Source of the DNA: a virus
Taxonomy: Duplodnaviria > Heunggongvirae > Uroviricota > Caudoviricetes
IMG/VR virus record: IMGVR_UViG_2537561688_000020
DNA length: 21,544 nt
Reading direction: 5' to 3' (one strand)
In this document: positions 1,777 to 17,257 of the stretch, piece by piece
How positions within the stretch are numbered: the stretch's first letter is position 1
How the letters are laid out: every line of letters begins with the position of its first letter
Program-made: the position numbers and the translations under genes
The notes under the pieces: generated by a model
Seen by the model: only the letters and a program-made list of their open reading frames with translations
What the model was told of the DNA's origin: nothing
Database searches by the model: none

Positions 1777-3372
1777 TTATGGCTGAGACTCTGGTTTAGC
1801 AATCTCGTTTATAAATTTCTTAGCTACAACAGTCTCATACTTTCTATAATCATCAAGATATTGAACATCTATATGATTTTTGTAGCGAGCATTAAATTTA
1901 TTTGCAGCCCCTGTTTTATCATCTTTACGTTCATCCGTTGGTCTGAAAAATTTATGGTAGCGGCGGGGTGATACCCCCTCAAAATCACAAAATATTACTT
2001 TGGAAGATTCTTCGTTCTTTGTTATTGCATCATTATGCAGATCAAGAGCAAGGCTTTTATCAAATGGCTCTATATATACTACTTTTTTTATTCCAGATGC
2101 GACAATATGCCTTGCACAGTTGTGGCAGGGGTAGGTTGTCGTAAAAAGAATTTTATCTTTAGTATCGCCGTTTTGTTTTCTAGCCATTGATGTAATGACG
2201 TCCATTTCAGCATGAATTGATCTGGAGTACTCCATTACACTTGATATTTTGCTGTCTTTGTAAATGCCTTCTGCAATATTATCTAATTTGTTTAGAAGTC
2301 GTGTTATATTAATATCGGCAACAGTTTGTCCTGCGGAAATACCTAATACACTTCTTACTTCGGTTGATAATATGCTTTTTATACGGTCTTTAATTTTTAG
2401 CTTGTTTGCATCATTATAACACTTACCACTTTTGTGAACGCATCGATGATCGTTATCAAAATCATCACTGCTATACAACCCGCCACCAGCTTTAGGTACG
2501 TCGTTCTTACCCACGGCAAGCAAATTCCCTTCATCATCAAACAGTGCAGCCCCTACTTGACGTGATAAACAAGCTGATTGTAATGATGTTGAAAAGGCAG
2601 CATACATACCTTTCTCGTTAAAAGTTGGTGTTAAACCATTTTTGCCATGAATAAGACCGAAAAACCGATCAATCTTCTTCTTTAATTCACTTTTTTGGCT
2701 GAAGTTATTTTTAATAAAAAAATCTGAATCAAGAATGGTTTCCCCGGTTCTTTGTCCATACGGATCAGAGGATTTATTATCAATATTGATAATTAAATGA
2801 AGGTCGTCCTTTGCCGATTCGTCAGCAATGAGATTCGGAATTCGGTAATCTAAATCGCGCAAAACTCCTAACAAATAGAAATTATGCTGATATATAACTC
2901 TGAATAACTCTATTTCTTCCGGCCTTTTGAATTGATCAATGATGAAGACAGTACCTTTATATTCATCATTATTATAATCAATATTCTTTTTCGCTGTTGC
3001 GATTGCTGCAATAGCAGCTTCTGCAAGCAACTCATTTTTTTCGTAATGTTTACGAAGTTTATTGGCAATATCCTGGAGTTTTAAATGTCTATTAACTTGT
3101 GTGCTTTCGGATACCTTCAGTGCTGCTGGCTCAAAATATAATGGGTCTTCCATAAGCGCACTTATGCGGATGTGTACAACATTATCCCCCCATTCTTTGG
3201 ATATCTCTTCGATAATTTTGTTTATCGTTCTCATGCCACATCCAACATATCCACACAATCCAAGATAAATATCTTTTGATTGTCGTGAATTCACAATCTC
3301 AAGTGATGATGCCGATGTTGAGCCTTTTTTTTCATTCAGCTTTTGTGGAGTTTTTTTTGCTGCTTCAGCCAT
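1777..3372 (-). CDS. dcdV: DcdV-like anti-phage deoxycytidylate (dCTP/dCMP) deaminase: N-terminal P-loop-like domain fused to C-terminal zinc CDA-fold deaminase
   Basis: 531-aa ORF. C-terminal zinc-deaminase signature: CLSRQVGAALF, then HAE (H387/E389), then PCHNC (C416/C419) and GIKKVVY, as in dCMP deaminases. N-terminal glycine-rich P-loop-like stretch GLCGYVGCGMRT. About 32% GC in a sampled stretch versus about 60% in the replication genes. Int-proximal cargo position. Confidence 0.7.
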   Translation of the reverse strand: MAEAAKKTPQKLNEKKGSTSASSLEIVNSRQSKDIYLGLCGYVGCGMRTINKIIEEISKEWGDNVVHIRISALMEDPLYFEPAALKVSESTQVNRHLKLQDIANKLRKHYEKNELLAEAAIAAIATAKKNIDYNNDEYKGTVFIIDQFKRPEEIELFRVIYQHNFYLLGVLRDLDYRIPNLIADESAKDDLHLIINIDNKSSDPYGQRTGETILDSDFFIKNNFSQKSELKKKIDRFFGLIHGKNGLTPTFNEKGMYAAFSTSLQSACLSRQVGAALFDDEGNLLAVGKNDVPKAGGGLYSSDDFDNDHRCVHKSGKCYNDANKLKIKDRIKSILSTEVRSVLGISAGQTVADINITRLLNKLDNIAEGIYKDSKISSVMEYSRSIHAEMDVITSMARKQNGDTKDKILFTTTYPCHNCARHIVASGIKKVVYIEPFDKSLALDLHNDAITKNEESSKVIFCDFEGVSPRRYHKFFRPTDERKDDKTGAANKFNARYKNHIDVQYLDDYRKYETVVAKKFINEIAKPESQP

Positions 3373-6996: not shown

Positions 6997-7597
6997 TTTG
7001 CTGCTCCTCATCATATCGACCCTGCAAGGTCGGTTGGTTTCTCCACAAAACAGAGAAGAACACCTGCGGTGGCAGCCGCCCGGATGGATTGGGTTATGAG
7101 CCCGTCGTCCGGTGATGCTCTTCTCTGTTTTGTAAAAAGAGCGGTACCAGCCGGAAGCAAGTGTACAAACTGGTACCGCCAAAGCAGTGGCTGTTGTGGT
7201 GGGGTTGTCACTCAGGCGTATGGTCAACCTGACAATCCGGTGTCCTCAACGGGGAAAGAGTAACCCCGCCATACTTACCGCCGCGCCATTTCGCGGATTA
7301 CCACAACGCTGAGAGCACTTAGCCAGTTACGGCACCACACTTTGTCGCGGTTCCATAAATGCCCTCATCGTTGCACCCTGGTCTCTTCCCAGGCGTCAAA
7401 CCGAATCGCCACGCTGGTTAGGCGTCTTATCAGCATCATCATTGACTTGCACATTCCGGCTACCTGGTTTGTTTGCTCGAGCAAGGAGTGGATTGTCCCC
7501 TTTAACGTCACCAGACCGCTAACGACGCATGTGCCATACGCCGTGTTACAACCAAATTTTGTTTTAATCTTGCCTGTGTTATGTTTCTTTTAGATAC

Positions 7598-7625
7598 ATT
7601 ATGTATCTCATGGGTACATTGTCAA
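7598..7625 (-). promoter_or_regulatory. Candidate early-left promoter (pL-like) with overlapping 17-bp palindromic operator
   Basis: On the - strand: TTGACA (reverse complement of 7620-7625), 16-nt spacer, CATAAT (reverse complement of 7598-7603). Perfect palindrome agatacat-t-atgtatct at 7592-7608 overlaps the -10 element. Confidence 0.4.
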
Positions 7626-7664: not shown

Positions 7665-8339
7665 TTAGGCCTTTATTGTGTATCTTCTTGGTTTTCCCGA
7701 GAAAATCACTGTACCAATTATAGAGCAATTACCGTTAATCTTAATGTAAGGCTCAGGCCAGTTTGGGTTTAATGCTTTGAGATAACGCTGTGTTCCATCT
7801 TCTATCAACCGCTTGAAGGTGGTTTCGCCTGAATCGTGCATCAATGCAATAACGTCGTCACCGTGGCAGGCAGGGACTTCAGGATCTACAAAAATCATGT
7901 CTCCCGGGCGGTACTCATCAATCATTGAATCACCAATCACCCGCAAGATATAAGTCATTTCGCCACAGGGTACAGGGCAGGGATAAGTTTCTGCTGTGCT
8001 CAAATCAACCTCAGAATAGCCAACTTCTTTCCATGCTCCGGCCTGTACCCATGATATGACAGGGACTAACGTTATTTGTTTGTTAGTAATTGAAACATCA
8101 GGTTTTTTTGTGATGTTTGTTGTCTGGTGTTCTTGATCAAGCCATCCGACAGGCAGGTCGAAACATTTTTCGATGTGCCGTGCCATGCTGTCACCGATAT
8201 TTTTAGTAGCACCATCTCCCATAAACCTGCTGGTCTGGGTTGGCTCGCGATCAATCATGGTGGCAAAGGAAGAATTCCCGCCAACACCATCTCTCAGTTT
8301 TCTGGCGTTAGACCGCCGGATGTCATGGACTGTTTTCAT
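7665..8339 (-). CDS. CI-like prophage repressor (N-terminal HTH plus C-terminal S24 LexA-like peptidase domain)
   Basis: 224-aa ORF. C-terminal S24 signatures (RVIGDSM, later Lys) and an N-terminal phage CI-type DNA-binding region. Divergent from a Cro-like gene. Confidence 0.85.
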   Translation of the reverse strand: MKTVHDIRRSNARKLRDGVGGNSSFATMIDREPTQTSRFMGDGATKNIGDSMARHIEKCFDLPVGWLDQEHQTTNITKKPDVSITNKQITLVPVISWVQAGAWKEVGYSEVDLSTAETYPCPVPCGEMTYILRVIGDSMIDEYRPGDMIFVDPEVPACHGDDVIALMHDSGETTFKRLIEDGTQRYLKALNPNWPEPYIKINGNCSIIGTVIFSGKPRRYTIKA

Positions 8340-8355
8340 AAAGAAATTAAAACCT

Positions 8356-8374
8356 TTGTACCGATAAGGTACAA
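8356..8374. promoter_or_regulatory. Candidate operator palindrome in the cI-cro intergenic region
   Basis: Perfect inverted repeat TTGTACC-gataa-GGTACAA, just upstream of a candidate rightward promoter (TTGAAG 8380-8385, 16 nt, TAATAT 8402-8407). Confidence 0.45.
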
Positions 8375-8429
8375 GTATCTTGAAGGTTCATCTCAATCAT
8401 GTAATATGTATACCGGAGGTACATATTGT

Positions 8430-10058: not shown

Positions 10059-10287
10059 TCCGTTGATCCTCAATATTTGCCGTTTGCTTCAGCGTAAAAA
10101 AACATCAATTCCTACAGTTGGGCAGTGGTACACCACACCTGCAGGGCATGTTCTACGTGTTAGCCTGGTTGACCGTGAATGCCAGAAGGTGATTTGTGAA
10201 CCGCTGGGCCGTAATTACCGCGTCAGTATGCCGCTTATAGCCTTTCGCTCCGGAAAAAACATGAAGCATCTCGGAGGTGCAGCATGA
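10051..10287 (+). CDS. Small hypothetical protein
   Basis: 78-aa ORF, start overlaps the upstream stop and its stop overlaps the next start (ATGA). Confidence 0.35.
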   Translation: MLNPLILNICRLLQRKKTSIPTVGQWYTTPAGHVLRVSLVDRECQKVICEPLGRNYRVSMPLIAFRSGKNMKHLGGAA

Positions 10288-11126
10288 GTATGGAGCTGAT
10301 GGTTAAAGCGATGAAAATTCGAGTGGGTAATCCATTGCGAAAACTGGTTCTGATCAAGCTGGCTGATAATGCCAGCGATCAGGGTGAGTGCTGGCCCAGC
10401 TACCAGCATATTGCTGACCAGTGTGAGATTAGCAAACGTTCTGTGATGAATCATATTGCGGCCCTTTGTGAGTCCGGGCTGGTAAAAAAAGTCACCCGGA
10501 AAGGTGAAAAAGGTAACTCAAGTAATATCTATCTCCTTCATCTGGATGGTGCAGGAGATTCACTAGGGGGTAGTGCAAATAATTCACTATCTGGTGCAGC
10601 AAATTCACTAGGTAGTGCAGGAGTTGCACCAGGGGGTAGTGCAGGAGATTCACCCAGAACCAGTCACTCTTTTGAACCAGTCAAAGAACCAGTCAAAGAA
10701 CCAGTCAATGAACCAGTCAATGAACCAATAGCTGTTGGTGCATCAGTTGATGAGTCCGTGCGAGTTCGTTCAAACCGACCGGAATCCTCTCCGGAGTTTG
10801 AGCAGGCATGGCTGGCATATCCCAAACGTGCTGGTGGCAATTCAAAATCTGCAGCCTTCAAAGCCTGGAAAGCCCGTTTGAATGAGGGGGTAAACCCCGA
10901 AACCATGCTGGAAGGTGTGAAACGCTACGCGGGCTGGGTATCTGCGATGGGTAACAGCGGCACACAATTTGTGAAACAGGCTGTCACGTTCTTTGGTCCG
11001 GATCGTCATTTCGAAGAATCCTGGGAAGTTCCTGCGGTATCTGCAGCTAGACGTGAGGACCCGTACTTCAAAGCCAGTTACGACAACGTGGACTACAGCC
11101 AGATCCCGGCAGGATTCAGGGGGTGA
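10284..11126 (+). CDS. Putative replication initiator (O-like) with N-terminal HTH and internal iteron-encoding linker
   Basis: N-terminal HTH typical of phage replication organisers (LVLIKLADNASDQGECWPSYQHIADQCEISKRSVMNHIAAL). Central low-complexity linker encoded by tandem DNA repeats. Sits in the lambda O position. Confidence 0.5.
   Translation: MSMELMVKAMKIRVGNPLRKLVLIKLADNASDQGECWPSYQHIADQCEISKRSVMNHIAALCESGLVKKVTRKGEKGNSSNIYLLHLDGAGDSLGGSANNSLSGAANSLGSAGVAPGGSAGDSPRTSHSFEPVKEPVKEPVNEPVNEPIAVGASVDESVRVRSNRPESSPEFEQAWLAYPKRAGGNSKSAAFKAWKARLNEGVNPETMLEGVKRYAGWVSAMGNSGTQFVKQAVTFFGPDRHFEESWEVPAVSAARREDPYFKASYDNVDYSQIPAGFRG
10657..10727. repeat. Tandem 12-bp iterons (GAACCAGTCAAA/T, about 5.5 copies) inside the O-like gene; candidate replication origin
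   Basis: Units at 10674, 10686, 10698 and 10710, a half unit at 10722 and a degenerate copy at 10657. Encode (EPVK/EPVN)n. An imperfect repeat block (ATTCACTA / GGTAGTGCA motifs) lies at 10549-10655. Confidence 0.5.
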
Positions 11127-11617
11127 TCATGAGTCTTTTGAATGAAGTTCAGAAATTCATTGAAGCCCATCCGGGGTGTACTTCCGGAGACATTGCGGAT
11201 GCTTTTGCAGGTTACTCACGGCAGCGCGTTCTGCAGTCAGCAAGCAAGTTACGTCAGAGTGGGCGTGTGGCTCACCGTTGTGAAGGAGATACACGCAGAC
11301 ATTTCCCACGCCTGACTGAGAGAGCGCAGGAGCCGGAACCACAACCAGTTCGTGAAACCAGACCTGTGCGCAATTTCTATGTCGGCACTAACGATCCCCG
11401 GGTGATTTTGTGCCTGACCCGCCAGGCGGAAGAACTGGAGTCCAGGGGCTTATACCGTCGTGCTGCAACGGTGTGGATGGCGGCATTCCGTGAAAGCTAC
11501 TCCCAGCCAGAACGAAACAATTTTCTGGCGCGTCGTGAACGGTGTTTACGGAAAAGCAGTAAGCGGGCTGCATCAGGTGAAGAGTGGTATCTGTCAGGGA
11601 ATTACGTGGGGGCTTAA
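11123..11617 (+). CDS. PerC-family-like transcriptional regulator (YfdN-like)
   Basis: 164-aa ORF containing the PerC-type motif LESRGLYRRAATVWMAAF. Coupled to flanking genes. Confidence 0.5.
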   Translation: MIMSLLNEVQKFIEAHPGCTSGDIADAFAGYSRQRVLQSASKLRQSGRVAHRCEGDTRRHFPRLTERAQEPEPQPVRETRPVRNFYVGTNDPRVILCLTRQAEELESRGLYRRAATVWMAAFRESYSQPERNNFLARRERCLRKSSKRAASGEEWYLSGNYVGA

Positions 11618-11943
11618 TGACGACGTTAACTCAATGCCAGCAGCAGGTGCTGGATATGCTGATTTCTTACCAGAAAGAACGTGGCTTCCCGCCAACCAAT
11701 CAGGAGGTGGCAACCATGCTGGGATACCGTTCGGTGAATGCAGCGGTGGAGCATCTTCGCGCACTGGAGAAAAAAGGCGTCATCACGATAAAGCGTGGCG
11801 TGGCCCGGGGGATAACGCTTCATACCGCGGTGAAGGACGACGACAGCGAGGCTGTCGGGATTATCCGCTCACTGCTTGCCGGTGAGGAAAACGCAAGGCT
11901 GCGTGCAACCCACTGGCTACATGAGAGAGGCCTGAAAGTATGA
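11617..11943 (+). CDS. LexA N-terminal DNA-binding-domain-only protein (no S24 peptidase domain)
   Basis: 108 aa from the ATG overlapping the upstream stop (TAATG). The segment LTQCQQQVLDMLISYQKERGFPPTNQEVATMLGYRSVNAAVEHLRALEKKGVI closely resembles the LexA winged-HTH domain (LTxRQQEV...GxPPTxxEIAxxLGFRSPNAAEEHLKALxRKGVI). Confidence 0.55.
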   Translation: MTTLTQCQQQVLDMLISYQKERGFPPTNQEVATMLGYRSVNAAVEHLRALEKKGVITIKRGVARGITLHTAVKDDDSEAVGIIRSLLAGEENARLRATHWLHERGLKV

Positions 11944-12329
11944 AACTGATCCTGCCTTTCCCGCCCAGCGTGAATACGTACTGGCGACACCCTAACAAAG
12001 GGGCGTTTGCTGGTAAAAGCCTGATAAGCACGGCGGGGCGCAAATTCCAGAGCGCGGCGTGCGCAGCAATAGTTGAGCAGTTACGTCGTCTGCCGAAACC
12101 AACGTCGGCACCTGCTTCAGTGGAGATCGTGTTGTTTCCTCCGGATAACCGGATCCGCGATCTGGACAACTATAACAAGGCACTGTTTGACGCCCTGACC
12201 CACGCGGGTGTGTGGGAAGACGACAGTCAGGTGAAAAGAATGCTGGTGGAGTGGGGACCGGTTATCCCGGAAGGGAAGGTCGAGATCACTATCAGTAAGT
12301 ACGAGAAAACGGCGGGTGCAGCCGCCTGA
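11940..12329 (+). CDS. rusA: RusA Holliday-junction resolvase
   Basis: 129-aa ORF with the characteristic LPFPPSVNTYW N-terminus and the acidic catalytic region (RIRDLDN, DALTHAGVWEDD). Confidence 0.9.
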   Translation: MKLILPFPPSVNTYWRHPNKGAFAGKSLISTAGRKFQSAACAAIVEQLRRLPKPTSAPASVEIVLFPPDNRIRDLDNYNKALFDALTHAGVWEDDSQVKRMLVEWGPVIPEGKVEITISKYEKTAGAAA

Positions 12330-12348
12330 TTAAGAGGAGAAACGAAGT

Positions 12349-13158
12349 ATGAATAATCTGATGGTCATTGATGGTATTGAAGTTCGTCGTGATGCTTATG
12401 GACGTTATAGCCTGAACGATCTGCATCGCGCAGCAGTAGCATCTGGTGCAAATGCCAGAACCAAGGAGCCAGGAAAGTTTCTTTCCAGCCAACAAACTGT
12501 TGAGCTTGTTCATGAATTGACCAACACCCAGAATTTGGGTGTTGACCCGGTGAGTGTGATTCATGGGGGAAATGAACGGGGAACGTATGTCTGTAAGGAA
12601 CTAGTGTATGCCTATGCAATGTGGATCAGCCCGTCATTCCATCTGAAGGTGATCCGTACTTTCGATATGGTAACCAGCGCACCGGAAAAATTATCCGGGC
12701 AGGCTGCTGACAAGATGCAGGCTGGAGTGATTCTGCTGGACTTTATGCGCAGGGAGTTAAACCTGTCTAACTCATCTGTGCTTGGGGCCTGTCAGAAACT
12801 CCAGGAGGCTGTTGGCTTACCGAATCTGGCACCGCGTTATGCCATTGATGCTCCTGCTGACGCGCCTGATGGCTCAAGCCGCCCCACGCTGTCACTGAGT
12901 GCACTGCTGAAGCAGTATGGTATCCGCCTGACGGCTAATCAGGCATATCACCAGATGGCGAAGCTGGGGATCGTCGAACAGCGCGAACGATACAGCCGTA
13001 CAGCGATTAACAACATCAAAAAATTCTGGTCGCTGACAGCGAAAGGCTGCATGTTCGGCAAGAACATCACCAGTCCCGCAAATCCGCGCGAGACGCAGCC
13101 GCATTTCTTCGAATCCCGATTCCCTGAGCTGTTAAAGCTGCTCGATACCGTTCATTGA
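12349..13158 (+). CDS. KilA-N domain protein (antirepressor-like)
   Basis: N-terminal KilA-N pattern (YSLNDLHRA ... GTYVCKELVYAYAMWISPSFHLKVIRTFD). Confidence 0.7.
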   Translation: MNNLMVIDGIEVRRDAYGRYSLNDLHRAAVASGANARTKEPGKFLSSQQTVELVHELTNTQNLGVDPVSVIHGGNERGTYVCKELVYAYAMWISPSFHLKVIRTFDMVTSAPEKLSGQAADKMQAGVILLDFMRRELNLSNSSVLGACQKLQEAVGLPNLAPRYAIDAPADAPDGSSRPTLSLSALLKQYGIRLTANQAYHQMAKLGIVEQRERYSRTAINNIKKFWSLTAKGCMFGKNITSPANPRETQPHFFESRFPELLKLLDTVH

Positions 13159-13159
13159 G

Positions 13160-14155
13160 GTGACCGTGAGAGCACTACTGACCCCTGAAATTGCCCCGCG
13201 TATGGGGATCGTATTGTTCAGGCCAGGTTCAGAGCTGATGCCCCTGTTTATGCAGGGGCGTGTCCTGCTGGAGCCTGAGCCGGAACGTTATTCATCTTTC
13301 GCCAGTGGTGCCGTTCCGGCGGCATCACAACCGCTGGCGGATGATCCTGCCATTCGGGCCGTGTTCCGCAATGAGGCAGTGATCCGTCGTGCTGGTGGCG
13401 TGGAATGTCTTGAAAGCTGGTTACTTCGTGAAAAAGGCTGCCAGTGGCCTCATTCCGACTGGCACAGCGAGAACATGACCACAATGCGACACGCGCCGGG
13501 CGCAATCCGTCTGTGCTGGCACTGCGATAACCAGCTGCGCGATCAGTTCACGGAACGGCTGGAATCAATGGCAACGGATAACTGTGCCCGCTGGGTGTTG
13601 TCTGTTGTGCGTCGGGATCTCGGTTTTGATGACAGTCACGTTGTGACAATGCCGGAACTGTGCTGGTGGCTGATTCGTAATGACCTGGCGGATGCCTTAC
13701 CGGAAAGTGCAGCCCGTAAGGCACTGAGATTACCAAAGCCTGTTGTGCCGTCTGTCACCCGGGAAAGTGACCTTGTGCCTTCGGTTCCTGCCACCAGCAT
13801 CATCCAGGATAAAGCGAAAAAGGTGCTGGCGCTGAAAGTGGATCCGGAGTCGCCGGAGTCTTTTATGTTACGCCCAAAACGTCGCCGCTGGGTTAATGAA
13901 AAGTACACGCGCTGGGTTAAGACACAGCCGTGTGCATGTTGTGGAAAGCCCGCTGATGATCCCCACCACCTGATAGGTCACGGTCAGGGTGGAATGGGAA
14001 CAAAAGCGCATGACCTCTTTGTGTTGCCTTTGTGCAGAAAGCATCACGACGAGCTGCATGCGGATACCGTGGCATTTGAAGAGAAGTATGGCTCTCAGCT
14101 GGAGCTGATATTTCGTTTTATCGATCGTGCGCTGGCAATTGGCGTATTGGCGTAA
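13160..14155 (+). CDS. DUF968-domain phage protein (YdfU-like)
   Basis: C-terminal Cys/His-rich DUF968-like segment (QPCACCGKPADDPHHLIGHGQGG ... LCRKHHDELH). Immediately upstream of the Q-like gene, as in Qin-type prophages. Confidence 0.65.
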   Translation: MTVRALLTPEIAPRMGIVLFRPGSELMPLFMQGRVLLEPEPERYSSFASGAVPAASQPLADDPAIRAVFRNEAVIRRAGGVECLESWLLREKGCQWPHSDWHSENMTTMRHAPGAIRLCWHCDNQLRDQFTERLESMATDNCARWVLSVVRRDLGFDDSHVVTMPELCWWLIRNDLADALPESAARKALRLPKPVVPSVTRESDLVPSVPATSIIQDKAKKVLALKVDPESPESFMLRPKRRRWVNEKYTRWVKTQPCACCGKPADDPHHLIGHGQGGMGTKAHDLFVLPLCRKHHDELHADTVAFEEKYGSQLELIFRFIDRALAIGVLA

Positions 14156-14168
14156 GTGGAGAACGAGC

Positions 14169-14921
14169 ATGAACCTTGAAGCCTTACCAAAATATTACTC
14201 CCCAAAATCTCCAAAATTGAGCGATGACGCACCGGCGACAGGCTCAGGTGGTTTAACGATTACGGATGTGATGGCTGCGCAGGGGATGGTGCAGTCGAAA
14301 GCACCGCTTGGGTTTGCCTTATTCCTGGCAAAAGTTGGTGTTCAGGATCCTCAATTTGCGATTGAAGGTCTGCTCAATTACGCGATGGCACTGGATAACC
14401 CGACATTGAACAAATTGAGTGAAGAAACCCGGTTACAGATCATCCCTTACCTTGTGAATTTTGCCTTTGCTGATTATTCCAGGTCTGCGGCAAGTAAGGC
14501 TCGCTGTGAGCATTGTGCTGGTACTGGATTTCATAATGTATTGCGCGAAGTGGTGAAACACTCCAGAAGCGGGGAATCTGTTATCAAGGAAGAGTGGGTG
14601 AAGGAACTATGTCAGCATTGTCATGGTAAGGGAGAAGTCAGCACAGCGTGCAGAGGGTGTAAGGGTAAAGGTATTGTCCTGGATGAAAAAAGGACCCGGC
14701 TTCATGGCACGCCTGTTTATAAGATTTGTGGGCGTTGCAATGGAAACCGGTTTAGCCGTTTACCAACCACACTGGCGCGGCATCATGTCCAGAAGCTGGT
14801 ACCAGACCTGACGGATTATCAGTGGTACAAAGGATATGCAGATGTCATTGATAAACTGGTTACAAAGTGCTGGCAGGAAGAAGCATATGCAGAGATACAA
14901 TTGAGAAATGTGACAAGATAA
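14169..14921 (+). CDS. Q-like late-gene antiterminator
   Basis: 250 aa from the ATG at 14169 preceded by GGAG. Cys-rich zinc-binding segment (CEHCAGTG ... CQHCHGKG ... CRGCKGKG). Followed by a candidate late promoter and terminator; position precedes the lysis genes. Confidence 0.65.
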   Translation: MNLEALPKYYSPKSPKLSDDAPATGSGGLTITDVMAAQGMVQSKAPLGFALFLAKVGVQDPQFAIEGLLNYAMALDNPTLNKLSEETRLQIIPYLVNFAFADYSRSAASKARCEHCAGTGFHNVLREVVKHSRSGESVIKEEWVKELCQHCHGKGEVSTACRGCKGKGIVLDEKRTRLHGTPVYKICGRCNGNRFSRLPTTLARHHVQKLVPDLTDYQWYKGYADVIDKLVTKCWQEEAYAEIQLRNVTR

Positions 14922-15029: not shown

Positions 15030-15052
15030 CCCGCCACTGAGCGGGTTTTTTT
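15030..15052 (+). terminator. Rho-independent terminator (tR'-like), copy 1
   Basis: GC stem cccgc / gcggg with 6-nt loop cactga, followed by 7 T. Confidence 0.55.
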
Positions 15053-15201: not shown

Positions 15202-15627
15202 ATGACTGTAATGAAAAAGGTATTAATAGCAGCGATAGGTTTTTGTTTAGTTGGTTGTGCAGGTATGAAATTACCTGAGTATTCGCAAGTTAAAGCAAGT
15301 CCGTATTATACAGATTGCCGTGCGTTTGCCATGGATGTTTATAAAAATGATGGATACAGCAAAATTGCGAAAACTACTATCCTTAGCATGGATGATGTGA
15401 AGGCTAGATATATTGTGACAGGGTGTGTAGTTGCTATGGGGAAAAACACTGTAGAGGAAATCAAAGCTGATCTCTCTGCTAAAGGGAGTTCTTTTGGGCT
15501 TATCAGTGGAGCTTGTTCTAGTGCGGCATGTCGGGTTGATGTAGAGCAGCAAATGAACGCTTATGTACTTGGTAGTTATTATGCTGCAAATAAAAAATTC
15601 CCGGATAAAATGAAAGCAGAGTTTTAA
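15202..15627 (+). CDS. Lipoprotein (cargo gene; candidate lysogenic-conversion or exclusion factor)
   Basis: Signal peptide with lipobox (MKKVLIAAIGFCLVGC). AT-rich (about 35% GC in a sampled stretch). Bracketed by two copies of the same terminator. Confidence 0.6.
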   Translation: MTVMKKVLIAAIGFCLVGCAGMKLPEYSQVKASPYYTDCRAFAMDVYKNDGYSKIAKTTILSMDDVKARYIVTGCVVAMGKNTVEEIKADLSAKGSSFGLISGACSSAACRVDVEQQMNAYVLGSYYAANKKFPDKMKAEF

Positions 15628-15706
15628 GTAAACCTTGTTTTCGATTATATGTCGAAGATAAATGTTAGTAACGGCATAATAAGTAAATATATAGCTGTGA
15701 TAGCAA

Positions 15707-15728
15707 CCCGCCACTGAGCGGGTTTTTT
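15707..15728 (+). terminator. Rho-independent terminator, copy 2 (identical stem-loop to copy 1)
   Basis: cccgccactgagcggg followed by 6 T. A 22-nt exact repeat of 15030-15051. Confidence 0.55.
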
Positions 15729-16204: not shown

Positions 16205-17257
16205 ATGAAAAATACTGTAAAAATAAACAGTGTTGATTTAATCAACGCTGATTGCCTGCATTTTATTCAGTCCCTGCCTGATGATTCCATTGACCTGATT
16301 GTTACCGATCCGCCGTACTTCAAGGTGAAACCCAACGGCTGGGACAATCAGTGGAAAGGGGACGAAGATTACCTTAAGTGGCTGGACCACTGTCTGGCCC
16401 AGTTCTGGCGGGTGTTAAAACCTGCCGGAAGCCTTTACCTGTTCTGTGGGCATCGCCTGGCATCTGATATTGAGATCATGATGCGTGAACGTTTCAACGT
16501 GCTTAACCATATCATCTGGGCGAAGCCGTCCGGACGTTGGAATGGGTGTAATAAAGAAAGTCTGCGCGCATATTTTCCTGCCACAGAGCGCGTTCTGTTT
16601 GCTGAACATTACCAGGGGCCATATCGCGGCAAAAGTGACGGCTATGCAGCAAAAGAAAGGGAACTCAAACAGCACATAATGGCACCGCTGATATCGTATT
16701 TCAGGGATGCTCGTGCCGAACTGGGTATAACGGCAAAACAAATTGCCGAAGCCACAGGTAAGAAAAATATGGTTTCCCACTGGTTTGGTGCCAGTCAGTG
16801 GCAGTTGCCGAATGAGGCTGACTATCGGAAGTTACAGGCACTGTTTTCCCGTATAGCGGCAGAGAAGTTTCAGGAACAACAACTGGAACAACCACACCAC
16901 CAGCTGGTGGCATCTTATGATTCACTGAATCGTAAATATTCTGAATTGCTGGATGAGTTTAAATCTCTCCGGCGCTATTTCTCCGTATCAGTCTCCGTGC
17001 CTTATACCGATGTCTGGATGCATAAACCCGTTCAGTTCTACCCGGGGAAACATCCGTGTGAGAAACCGGCGGATATGCTCAGGCAAATAATCAATGCCAG
17101 TAGTCGACCAGGTGATCTGGTTGCTGATTTTTTTATGGGATCCGGTTCCACAATAAAAGCAGCAATGGCGCTGGGGCGTCGGGCCTTAGGTGTTGAGCTT
17201 GAGTCAGAGCGGTTTAATCAGACAGTGAAAGAGATAAACGAGCTGGTGGGGAAATAA
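16205..17257 (+). CDS. Orphan DNA methyltransferase (N6-adenine or N4-cytosine, DPPY class)
   Basis: Catalytic motif IV, TDPPY, near the N-terminus. AdoMet-binding motif I (FFMGSGST) near the C-terminus. HPCEKP motif. No adjacent restriction endonuclease gene. Confidence 0.85.

Follow-up and report, generated by a model that had tools for sequence, protein, structure and literature searches.

Truncated relatives of the SOS repressor LexA have been described in temperate phages, and the closest such system is gp6 of the Bacillus tectivirus GIL01. This truncated LexA homologue of 66 amino acids (aa), which is 44 % identical to the LexA of its host, binds a palindrome of its own overlapping the -35 element of the late promoter P3 and activates that promoter (PMC6182141). 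Here we analyse a gene of comparable design in a lambdoid prophage represented by 21,544 nucleotides of DNA (IMG/VR virus record IMGVR_UViG_2537561688_000020, Caudoviricetes), the whole of which we call the window. The gene encodes a stand-alone LexA-type DNA-binding protein of 108 aa and corresponds to orf42 of Shigella phage SfV, where it is labelled 'unknown'; we use the name orf42 throughout. SfV orf42, the protein family PHROG 362 and the RefSeq entry WP_000210170.1 all represent the same family, in part the identical protein, under names that have been assigned by homology.

Both gp6 and orf42 are LexA DNA-binding domains of temperate phages without the protease, each about 44 % identical to the LexA of its host clade and each acting alongside the host LexA. 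However, gp6 has no tail whereas orf42 has one, and the carriers are a tectivirus in one case and lambdoid siphoviruses or myoviruses in the other. No BLASTP alignment between the two proteins was obtained at E <= 100. Homology to gp6 is thus not detectable, which argues for independent captures of the host LexA domain. The precedent set by gp6 is that a truncated LexA homologue can acquire an operator of its own and even serve as a transcriptional activator.

Modified forms of LexA itself provide a second comparison. LexA dimerises through a domain that is absent from the orf42 product, and the isolated LexA N-terminal domain binds weakly unless it is given a new dimerisation element, for example in the LexA(1-87)-leucine zipper fusion. 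Such fusions, like the lexA Ind- proteins, repress SOS operators in vivo. The zipper fusions resemble orf42 in principle, combining the LexA DNA-binding domain with a small heterologous dimerisation element and being insensitive to RecA. Both they and lexA Ind- keep the wild-type recognition helix, whereas orf42 is altered at position 44, has lost Arg28 and would dimerise through a tail of its own.

We propose, giving the idea an even chance, that orf42 encodes a small regulator derived from the N-terminal domain of a gamma-proteobacterial LexA that is non-cleavable, dimerised by its tail and directed to its own SOS-related operator. The proposal starts from a winged-helix fold with no S24 domain, a conserved tail, an early-operon position, a wide distribution and purifying selection, all of which are documented here. 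In the scheme that we envisage, the S24 autoprotease and dimerisation domain would have been replaced by a short two-helix tail. The product would be made as a delayed-early protein in lytic growth or upon induction and, in some sublineages, also from an SOS-box promoter of its own. It would dimerise via the tail, would escape inactivation by RecA-stimulated self-cleavage, would bind a palindromic operator sequence-specifically and would act as a phage-specific transcription regulator, either a repressor or an activator like GIL01 gp6.

Among the unstudied regulators of E. coli prophages, the orf42 product is one of the commonest, and its carriers include Shiga-toxin phages, whose induction is SOS-dependent. 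If it has its own operator, as the divergence of its recognition helix suggests, it would be the second independent case after GIL01 gp6 in which a phage has captured and rewired a LexA DNA-binding head, an example of domestication rather than a new principle. As it stands, the result correctly reads a gene that had been annotated before and is of modest interest.

A LexA-type domain without the protease

A preliminary description, made from the letters of the sequence, had presented the gene product as a stand-alone homologue of LexA's DNA-binding domain, and this reading is confirmed far beyond chance. The profile search that it had recommended places the protein in the LexA DNA-binding family: Pfam PF01726 (LexA_DNA_bind) matches along its entire length (protein 1-65 on profile 1-65/65) with E 2.9e-19 and 69 bits, well above the gathering cut-off of 23.7 bits. 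BLASTP aligns orf42 residues 1-90 with residues 1-86 of E. coli LexA at 43 % identity (E 8e-22), rising to ~50 % across the superposed domain (range 43-51 %), and phmmer against the Protein Data Bank (PDB) returns LexA chains only (E 7e-16). The AlphaFold2 (AF2) model, a monomer built from 23 family sequences, has a mean predicted local distance difference test score (pLDDT) of 83.8 and a predicted template modelling score (pTM) of 0.57. In the domain it contains three helices and a beta-wing (helices at residues 6-22 and 28-35, the recognition helix at 40-52 and the wing at 56-68). It superposes on the LexA N-terminal domain of 1LEA and 3JSO with a root-mean-square deviation of 1.1-1.3 A over 67-70 residues. 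Thus orf42 has the same winged-helix fold as E. coli LexA, with S39, N41, A42, E45 and R64-G65 in common.

The absence of the S24 domain, also part of the preliminary description, is equally clear. The Pfam search gave no Peptidase_S24 match in the orf42 product, which ends at residue 108, and the NCBIfam lexA equivalog TIGR00498 aligns with it only at model positions 1-91 of 203, scoring 70.8 bits against a cut-off of 110.95. Unlike LexA, orf42 has neither the S24 domain nor the Ser119/Lys156 dyad nor the LexA dimer interface, the tail taking the place of residues 75-202. It therefore fails the features that define LexA, namely the S24 domain, the curated score and Glu44. Because the S24 autoprotease domain is missing, the product is predicted to be non-cleavable. 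The same description was right that the prophage also carries a CI-like repressor with an S24 domain, which belongs to the wider LexA/CI regulatory world but combines S24 with a different DNA-binding domain; Pfam gave no PF01726 match in it.

A vestigial cleavage site, as a sign of cleavage in trans, was considered and set aside. The 'LLAGE' of orf42 (A88-G89) aligns with the 'VAAGE' of the LexA cleavage site (A84-G85). However, the AG pair lies at the end of a predicted helix and is absent in the Cronobacter, Klebsiella, mEp390 and P0242 sublineages, and self-cleavage is impossible because there is no protease domain.

Where the preliminary description went wrong was in letting the protein stop after the DNA-binding domain. 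It continues instead into two predicted helices within residues 75-103 that are conserved family-wide, and this conserved tail of ~35 aa defines the orf42 family. In the AF2 model the tail has a pLDDT of about 88 and is preceded by a low-confidence linker at residues 71-75. It is kept in homologues of only 38-57 % identity from Cronobacter, Klebsiella, Enterobacter, Salmonella, Kosakonia, Atlantibacter and phage mEp390, with a pattern of roughly [ED]-A-x-x-[ILV]-[ILV]-[RQ]-x-[LM]-[LIV]...A...A-x-x-[FWY]-L...G in which A97 and L101 are invariant or nearly so. No fold match for the tail was found among PDB structures. We propose that it may serve as the dimerisation module.

The limits of the gene are well marked. 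Its start codon ATG (11617-11619) shares bases with the TAA of the upstream PerC-family gene (TAATG), its stop codon TGA (11941-11943) shares bases with the start of rusA (ATGA), and a G-rich Shine-Dalgarno-like run at 11606-11612 lies 4 nucleotides 5' of the start of the 108 codons. An alternative GTG start at 11584 (119 aa) was rejected, as the alignments with homologues and with LexA begin at the ATG at 11617, the start that the Prokaryotic Genome Annotation Pipeline (PGAP) also chooses. Placed after the replication genes and before the antiterminator gene Q, the gene is part of the early-right (nin-like) operon, with essentially no intergenic DNA from the PerC-family gene through Q; from this position its product should be delayed-early.

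The pattern of substitutions indicates that orf42 is a functional gene under purifying selection. Compared with the window, 39 orf42 DNA alleles from related IMG/VR loci carry 4-11 synonymous and 0-2 non-synonymous changes, in a sample picked by protein identity and hence biased toward identical proteins. The gene of phage cdtI is 94.2 % identical to that of the window in nucleotides and 97.2 % in protein. Function is argued from these figures together with conservation of the protein down to about 40 % identity.

The family is widespread. PHROG 362, annotated as 'transcriptional repressor' and with an architecture of 106-108 aa, matches at full length with the tail included (protein 1-108 on profile 1-106/106, E 1.1e-59). 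Of 5426 complete E. coli genomes, 2233 (~41 %) carry the 327-bp gene at >=90 % identity; the best DNA match among them is 100 % and the PGAP name is 'LexA family transcriptional regulator'. The protein is identical to WP_000210170.1; this exact sequence lies on at least 1000 contigs, and the 90 %-identity cluster to which it belongs holds 2527 sequences. Deposited phage genomes carrying orf42 number 50 and include Ayreon (99.4 % identical to the window across 5.5 kb), mEp460, SfII, SfIV, cdtI and Stx2c, Stx2a and Stx2k converting phages. The family is also found in Stx, Shigella, Salmonella, Klebsiella and Cronobacter prophages. Phage records give it names as varied as 'LexA-like protein', 'LexA DNA binding domain protein' and, plainly in error, 'SOS-response repressor and protease LexA' or 'RecA-mediated autopeptidases'. 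The gene is thus already catalogued, under essentially the name that the preliminary description gave it.

Among predicted viral structures, proteins of 65-150 aa with a stand-alone LexA domain are common. Separately, tandem LexA_DNA_bind pairs were seen in representative proteins of 140-350 aa (P0132, P0133, P0149, P0152, P0153 and others), which could be single-chain pseudo-dimers.

Table 1. Positions in the window of orf42, its parts, its neighbours and the predicted SOS box
Feature	Coordinates	Strand	Basis
Stand-alone LexA-type DNA-binding protein gene (SfV orf42 family), 108 aa	11617..11943	+	Open reading frame (ORF), Pfam, PHROG 362, 100 % DNA match
LexA-type winged helix-turn-helix, residues 1-65	11617..11811	+	Pfam, AF2 secondary structure, superposition
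Recognition helix SVNAAVEHLRALEK (LexA: SPNAAEEHLKALAR), residues 39-52	11731..11772	+	Alignments
Two-helix tail, residues 75-103 (helices 75-87 and 93-103)	11839..11925	+	AF2 model, conserved hydrophobic pattern
PerC-family regulator gene (yfdN-like), translationally coupled to orf42	11123..11617	+	Pfam PerC E 1.7e-8; PGAP name
rusA Holliday-junction resolvase gene	11940..12329	+	Pfam RusA; immediate 3' neighbour in 9/10 sublineages sampled
KilA-N domain gene, same operon	12349..13158	+	Pfam KilA-N E 2.4e-22
DUF968/HNH-like gene	13160..14155	+	Pfam DUF968 E 3.5e-81
Antiterminator Q gene, end of early-right operon	14169..14921	+	Pfam Antiterm E 1.3e-53; PGAP
CI-like repressor gene with S24 (ymfK-like)	7665..8339	-	Peptidase_S24 E 2e-26; PGAP 'LexA family protein' ymfK
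SOS box TACTGTAAAAATAAACAGTG, codons 3-9 of methyltransferase gene	16213..16232		Position weight matrix, 22.5 bits; predicted site
N6/N4 DNA methyltransferase gene (SfV orf48), late region	16205..17257	+	N6_N4_Mtase E 2.2e-42; SfV annotation

Recognition helix and probable operator

The residues of LexA helix III that contact DNA are Ser39, Asn41, Ala42, Glu44 and Glu45 (PMC3091678). The window protein reads S, N, A, V and E at these positions, thus retaining four of the five contacts and replacing Glu44 by Val. The R64-G65 wing of LexA is retained as well, and Arg28 of LexA is Asn. The same division runs through 91 distant members of the tail family: S39 is present in 89, N41 in 88 and A42 in most, while at position 44 Glu is kept in only 2 of the 91, the others having A, T, N, L, F or V, and Arg never occurs at position 28. 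Position 45 is E or D in most of these proteins and L, T or I in some.

Positions 40, 44 and 45 of the helix vary between sublineages. The helix reads SPNAAEEHL in E. coli LexA and SVNAAVEHL in the window, SPNAAAEHV in mEp390, SPNAAAEHL in P0263 (metagenome-derived, 135 aa), SHNAAAEHL in Salmonella, SPNAATDML in Cronobacter, SSNAVLLHL in Klebsiella and SQNTVFIHL in P0242 (from a genome labelled Salmonella Choleraesuis). To our knowledge, the SOS box and the recognition helix of LexA are constant throughout the enterobacteria. Because all these hosts share one SOS box, the drift of the orf42 helix is hard to reconcile with a shared task at the canonical box and would fit lineage-specific operators better.

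Taken at the level of sequence, these patterns make two statements about the operator probable. It is probably related to the SOS half-site, because S39, N41, A42 and E45 are kept, and it is probably not identical to the SOS box, because E44 and R28 are lost and positions 44 and 45 are lineage-specific. Binding to CTG-type half-sites is possible. With a small or hydrophobic residue in place of an acidic one at a contact position, affinity could also be gained at the expense of specificity. The suggestion of the preliminary description that such a protein could occupy SOS boxes was a reasonable interpretation, and the comparative data lean against an identical SOS-box specificity.

Several points weigh against a phage-specific regulator with its own operator. 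No dedicated operator was found in the window in scans for CTGT-Nx-ACAG (x=0-20) and for inverted repeats of 7-10 bp; the palindromes recovered were the canonical SOS box, TGTAC-type CI operators and terminators, none of them tied to orf42. No candidate site of the GIL01 gp6 type was found between Q and the lysis region. Because almost no intergenic DNA flanks orf42, its regulatory target must lie elsewhere than around the gene. The proposed dimerisation through the tail is drawn from a monomer model with a pTM of 0.57. Finally, the literature searched yielded no experimental work on any member of the orf42 family.

SOS boxes and alternative explanations

The relation of the family to the SOS circuit was examined with a position weight matrix built from 19 E. 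coli LexA sites. Scanning the window for SOS boxes, as the preliminary description had advised, gives one strong canonical box, at 16213-16232; the next-best site scores 9.7 bits and the maximum over 200 shuffles is 19.0. The box in the methyltransferase gene is kept, with consensus-preserving changes, in the diverged copies of phiP27 (CACTGTAAAAATATCCAGTT), Flotzy (TACTGTAATTATAAACAGTG), Klebsiella phage Kp4866-6 and several Salmonella loci. Across the ~9 kb upstream phiP27 has no orf42 homologue. In Flotzy none was found in the stretch examined, which opens at the first base of the record with the DUF968/HNH gene, so that the usual orf42 position is not covered. Because phiP27 retains the box without a homologue in those ~9 kb, the box is most simply a site for host LexA that is independent of orf42, and it suggests LexA control of the methyltransferase in lysogens.

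A functional link between orf42 and this box was considered on the ground that orf42 is present in each of the 27 phage records whose methyltransferase 5' end is at least 95 % identical. It was rejected in favour of shared ancestry, since about 18 orf42 records are without that methyltransferase, the box is kept in phiP27, with no homologue in the 9 kb upstream, and in Flotzy, with none in the stretch examined, and the methyltransferase module is shared by only 42 % of the IMG/VR loci.

Of 80 related IMG/VR loci, 45 show one or more boxes scoring >=14 bits within 10 kb of orf42, and 35 have none. In three sublineages the gene for the LexA-type DNA-binding domain (LexA_DBD) is preceded, at a distance of about 440-600 bp, by a box scoring 24.7-27.6 bits, in the order SOS box-(dinI)-orfY-LexA_DBD (Klebsiella L083:7385, L094:5561 and L099:5564), and their proteins are N-terminally extended to 118-135 aa. 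The product of orfY (75-96 aa, no Pfam family) is about 45-49 % identical between the Klebsiella locus and L094; the putative orfY of L099, an ORF of 99 aa, is assigned by its position. The L094 box is preceded by a terminator-like hairpin. In these phages the LexA_DBD gene is probably itself SOS-induced. The upstream boxes tie the family to the SOS circuit without revealing what the protein binds.

A further, near-perfect SOS box (TACTGTTTTTACATACAGTA and variants, 25-27 bits) recurs in related phages of other immunity types, outside the window (for example L004:5546-5565, L086:4190 and L103:836), where it falls within the CI-like S24 repressor gene, in the part that codes for the linker. About 25 of the 80 loci have it, 2.9-4.5 kb upstream of orf42; it may be an internal promoter or a roadblock.

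These data bear on a rather unlikely alternative, namely that the orf42 product substitutes for LexA as a non-cleavable binder of CTGT-N8-ACAG which re-represses the SOS regulon and the box-bearing phage genes after LexA has been destroyed. The identity to the E. coli LexA DNA-binding domain and the four retained contacts speak for this. The N-terminal fragment of LexA remains a repressor as long as it escapes degradation by ClpXP, and tight binding is restored when LexA(1-87) is joined to a foreign dimerisation domain. The strong boxes near the gene in 45 of the 80 loci point in the same direction, as do the boxes upstream of the gene in three sublineages: if the protein bound such a box, lexA-like autoregulation would follow. 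However, about 35 of the 80 loci have no box at all, and the box in the methyltransferase gene persists in phiP27 and Flotzy as described above. Glu44 and Arg28 are lost family-wide, helices as different as those of the window, Cronobacter, Klebsiella and P0242 coexist under one host SOS box, and the most divergent helices are among those of the sublineages with an upstream SOS box. The spacing of the half-sites could, moreover, change with a different geometry of the dimer.

We regard as distinctly unlikely the specific version in which a protein substituting for LexA is made on induction, in the Klebsiella type directly from the SOS-box promoter, and, once host LexA is cleaved, shuts the SOS regulon and the box-bearing phage genes back down. 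The consequences would be considerable. A competitor for SOS boxes would be a phage-controlled, non-inducible brake on the SOS circuit. Were it a true substitute for LexA, it would be a widespread and overlooked modulator of SOS-dependent mutagenesis, filamentation, antibiotic responses and prophage cross-induction, with a breadth set by ~41 % of complete E. coli genomes and by the Stx2a, Stx2c and Shigella serotype-converting phages.

The conservation of gene order raises another alternative, which we consider improbable: that the orf42 product is a DNA-targeting accessory of its neighbours, the methylase, RusA and the DUF968/HNH protein, for example directing or restraining a nuclease or methylase in replication or recombination. 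The ten sublineages sampled, at 40-57 % protein identity, all keep the order (DNA methylase)-LexA_DBD-RusA-(KilA-N or ANT)-DUF968-Q-like, and DUF968 is the steadiest downstream partner, being present wherever the sampled contig reached far enough. This adjacency to the upstream methylase and to the downstream RusA and DUF968 genes is tight and evolutionarily stable, with codons that usually overlap or nearly abut. In lambdoid nin regions, however, conserved gene order is common without functional coupling. The window has no upstream methylase, and all characterised LexA-type winged-helix domains are transcription regulators. One natural protein, P0158 (240 aa), joins a LexA_DBD of the Klebsiella/Enterobacter type to the HNH part at the C-terminus of DUF968, but it is a singleton on one ENA contig, probably a deletion artefact, and comparable one-off Dam and RusA fusions exist (P0022, P0092, P0098, P0253). 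As a Rosetta-stone link between LexA_DBD and DUF968 the fusion was accordingly set aside as a deletion or frameshift artefact.

That orf42 is a decaying, functionless fragment of a captured lexA or cI-like gene is highly improbable: the LexA alignment does run into the hinge, with 'LLAGE' on 'VAAGE', which is compatible with an origin by truncation, but the full length and the tail are conserved to about 40 % identity in many genera with mostly synonymous substitutions, the frame is intact in thousands of genomes and the translational coupling is kept.

Gene neighbourhood and other features of the prophage

The window begins with an integrase gene, an anti-phage dCTP deaminase gene and early-left genes similar to yfdT, yfdR, yfdQ and yfdP. 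These are followed by the genes for the CI-like repressor, a Cro/YdaS-like protein, a CII-like protein, Ash, a replication protein and the PerC-family regulator, and then by orf42, RusA, KilA-N, DUF968/HNH, Q and a late region with the methyltransferase and lysis genes. The block perC-orf42-rusA-kilA-DUF968 (~11000-14250) is common to at least 93 % of the 80 IMG/VR loci, whereas the exchangeable modules are shared by fewer of them: 31 % for immunity, 44 % for replication and 38 % for Q, next to the methyltransferase figure given above.

In SfV the PerC-family gene and orf42 are separated by a Dam methylase gene (L002 5594-6247), which the window does not have. Most sublineages encode a DNA methylase (Dam, D12 or C5 type) directly 5' of the LexA_DBD gene.

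The gene beside the integrase (1777-3372, minus strand, 531 aa) is a prophage-borne defence gene: NCBIfam NF041025 for the anti-phage dCTP deaminase matches it with 456 bits against a cut-off of 400, and PADLOC identifies it as dCTPase (E 6.5e-161). Defence-system membership was also considered, and dismissed, on a PADLOC result that gave only a marginal CARF match (E 3.6e-4).

Inverted repeats of the TGTAC/GTACA type occur at 312-350, 7590-7610 and 8355-8428, that is, near the left end upstream of the integrase gene, downstream of cI and between cI and cro, and probably represent CI operators. The replication protein (HTH_36/DnaD_N, 10284-11126) contains a short tandem peptide repeat (KEPVKEPVNEPVNEP), at which an otherwise matching copy in an E. 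coli chromosome is 24 bp shorter. Downstream of Q, twin terminator hairpins (CCCGCCACTGAGCGGG followed by a T-run) at 15030-15045 and 15705-15724 flank an ORF of 141 aa (15202-15627) that has no family match and is present in 7-11 % of related loci. This ORF looks like a moron inserted at the tR' position.

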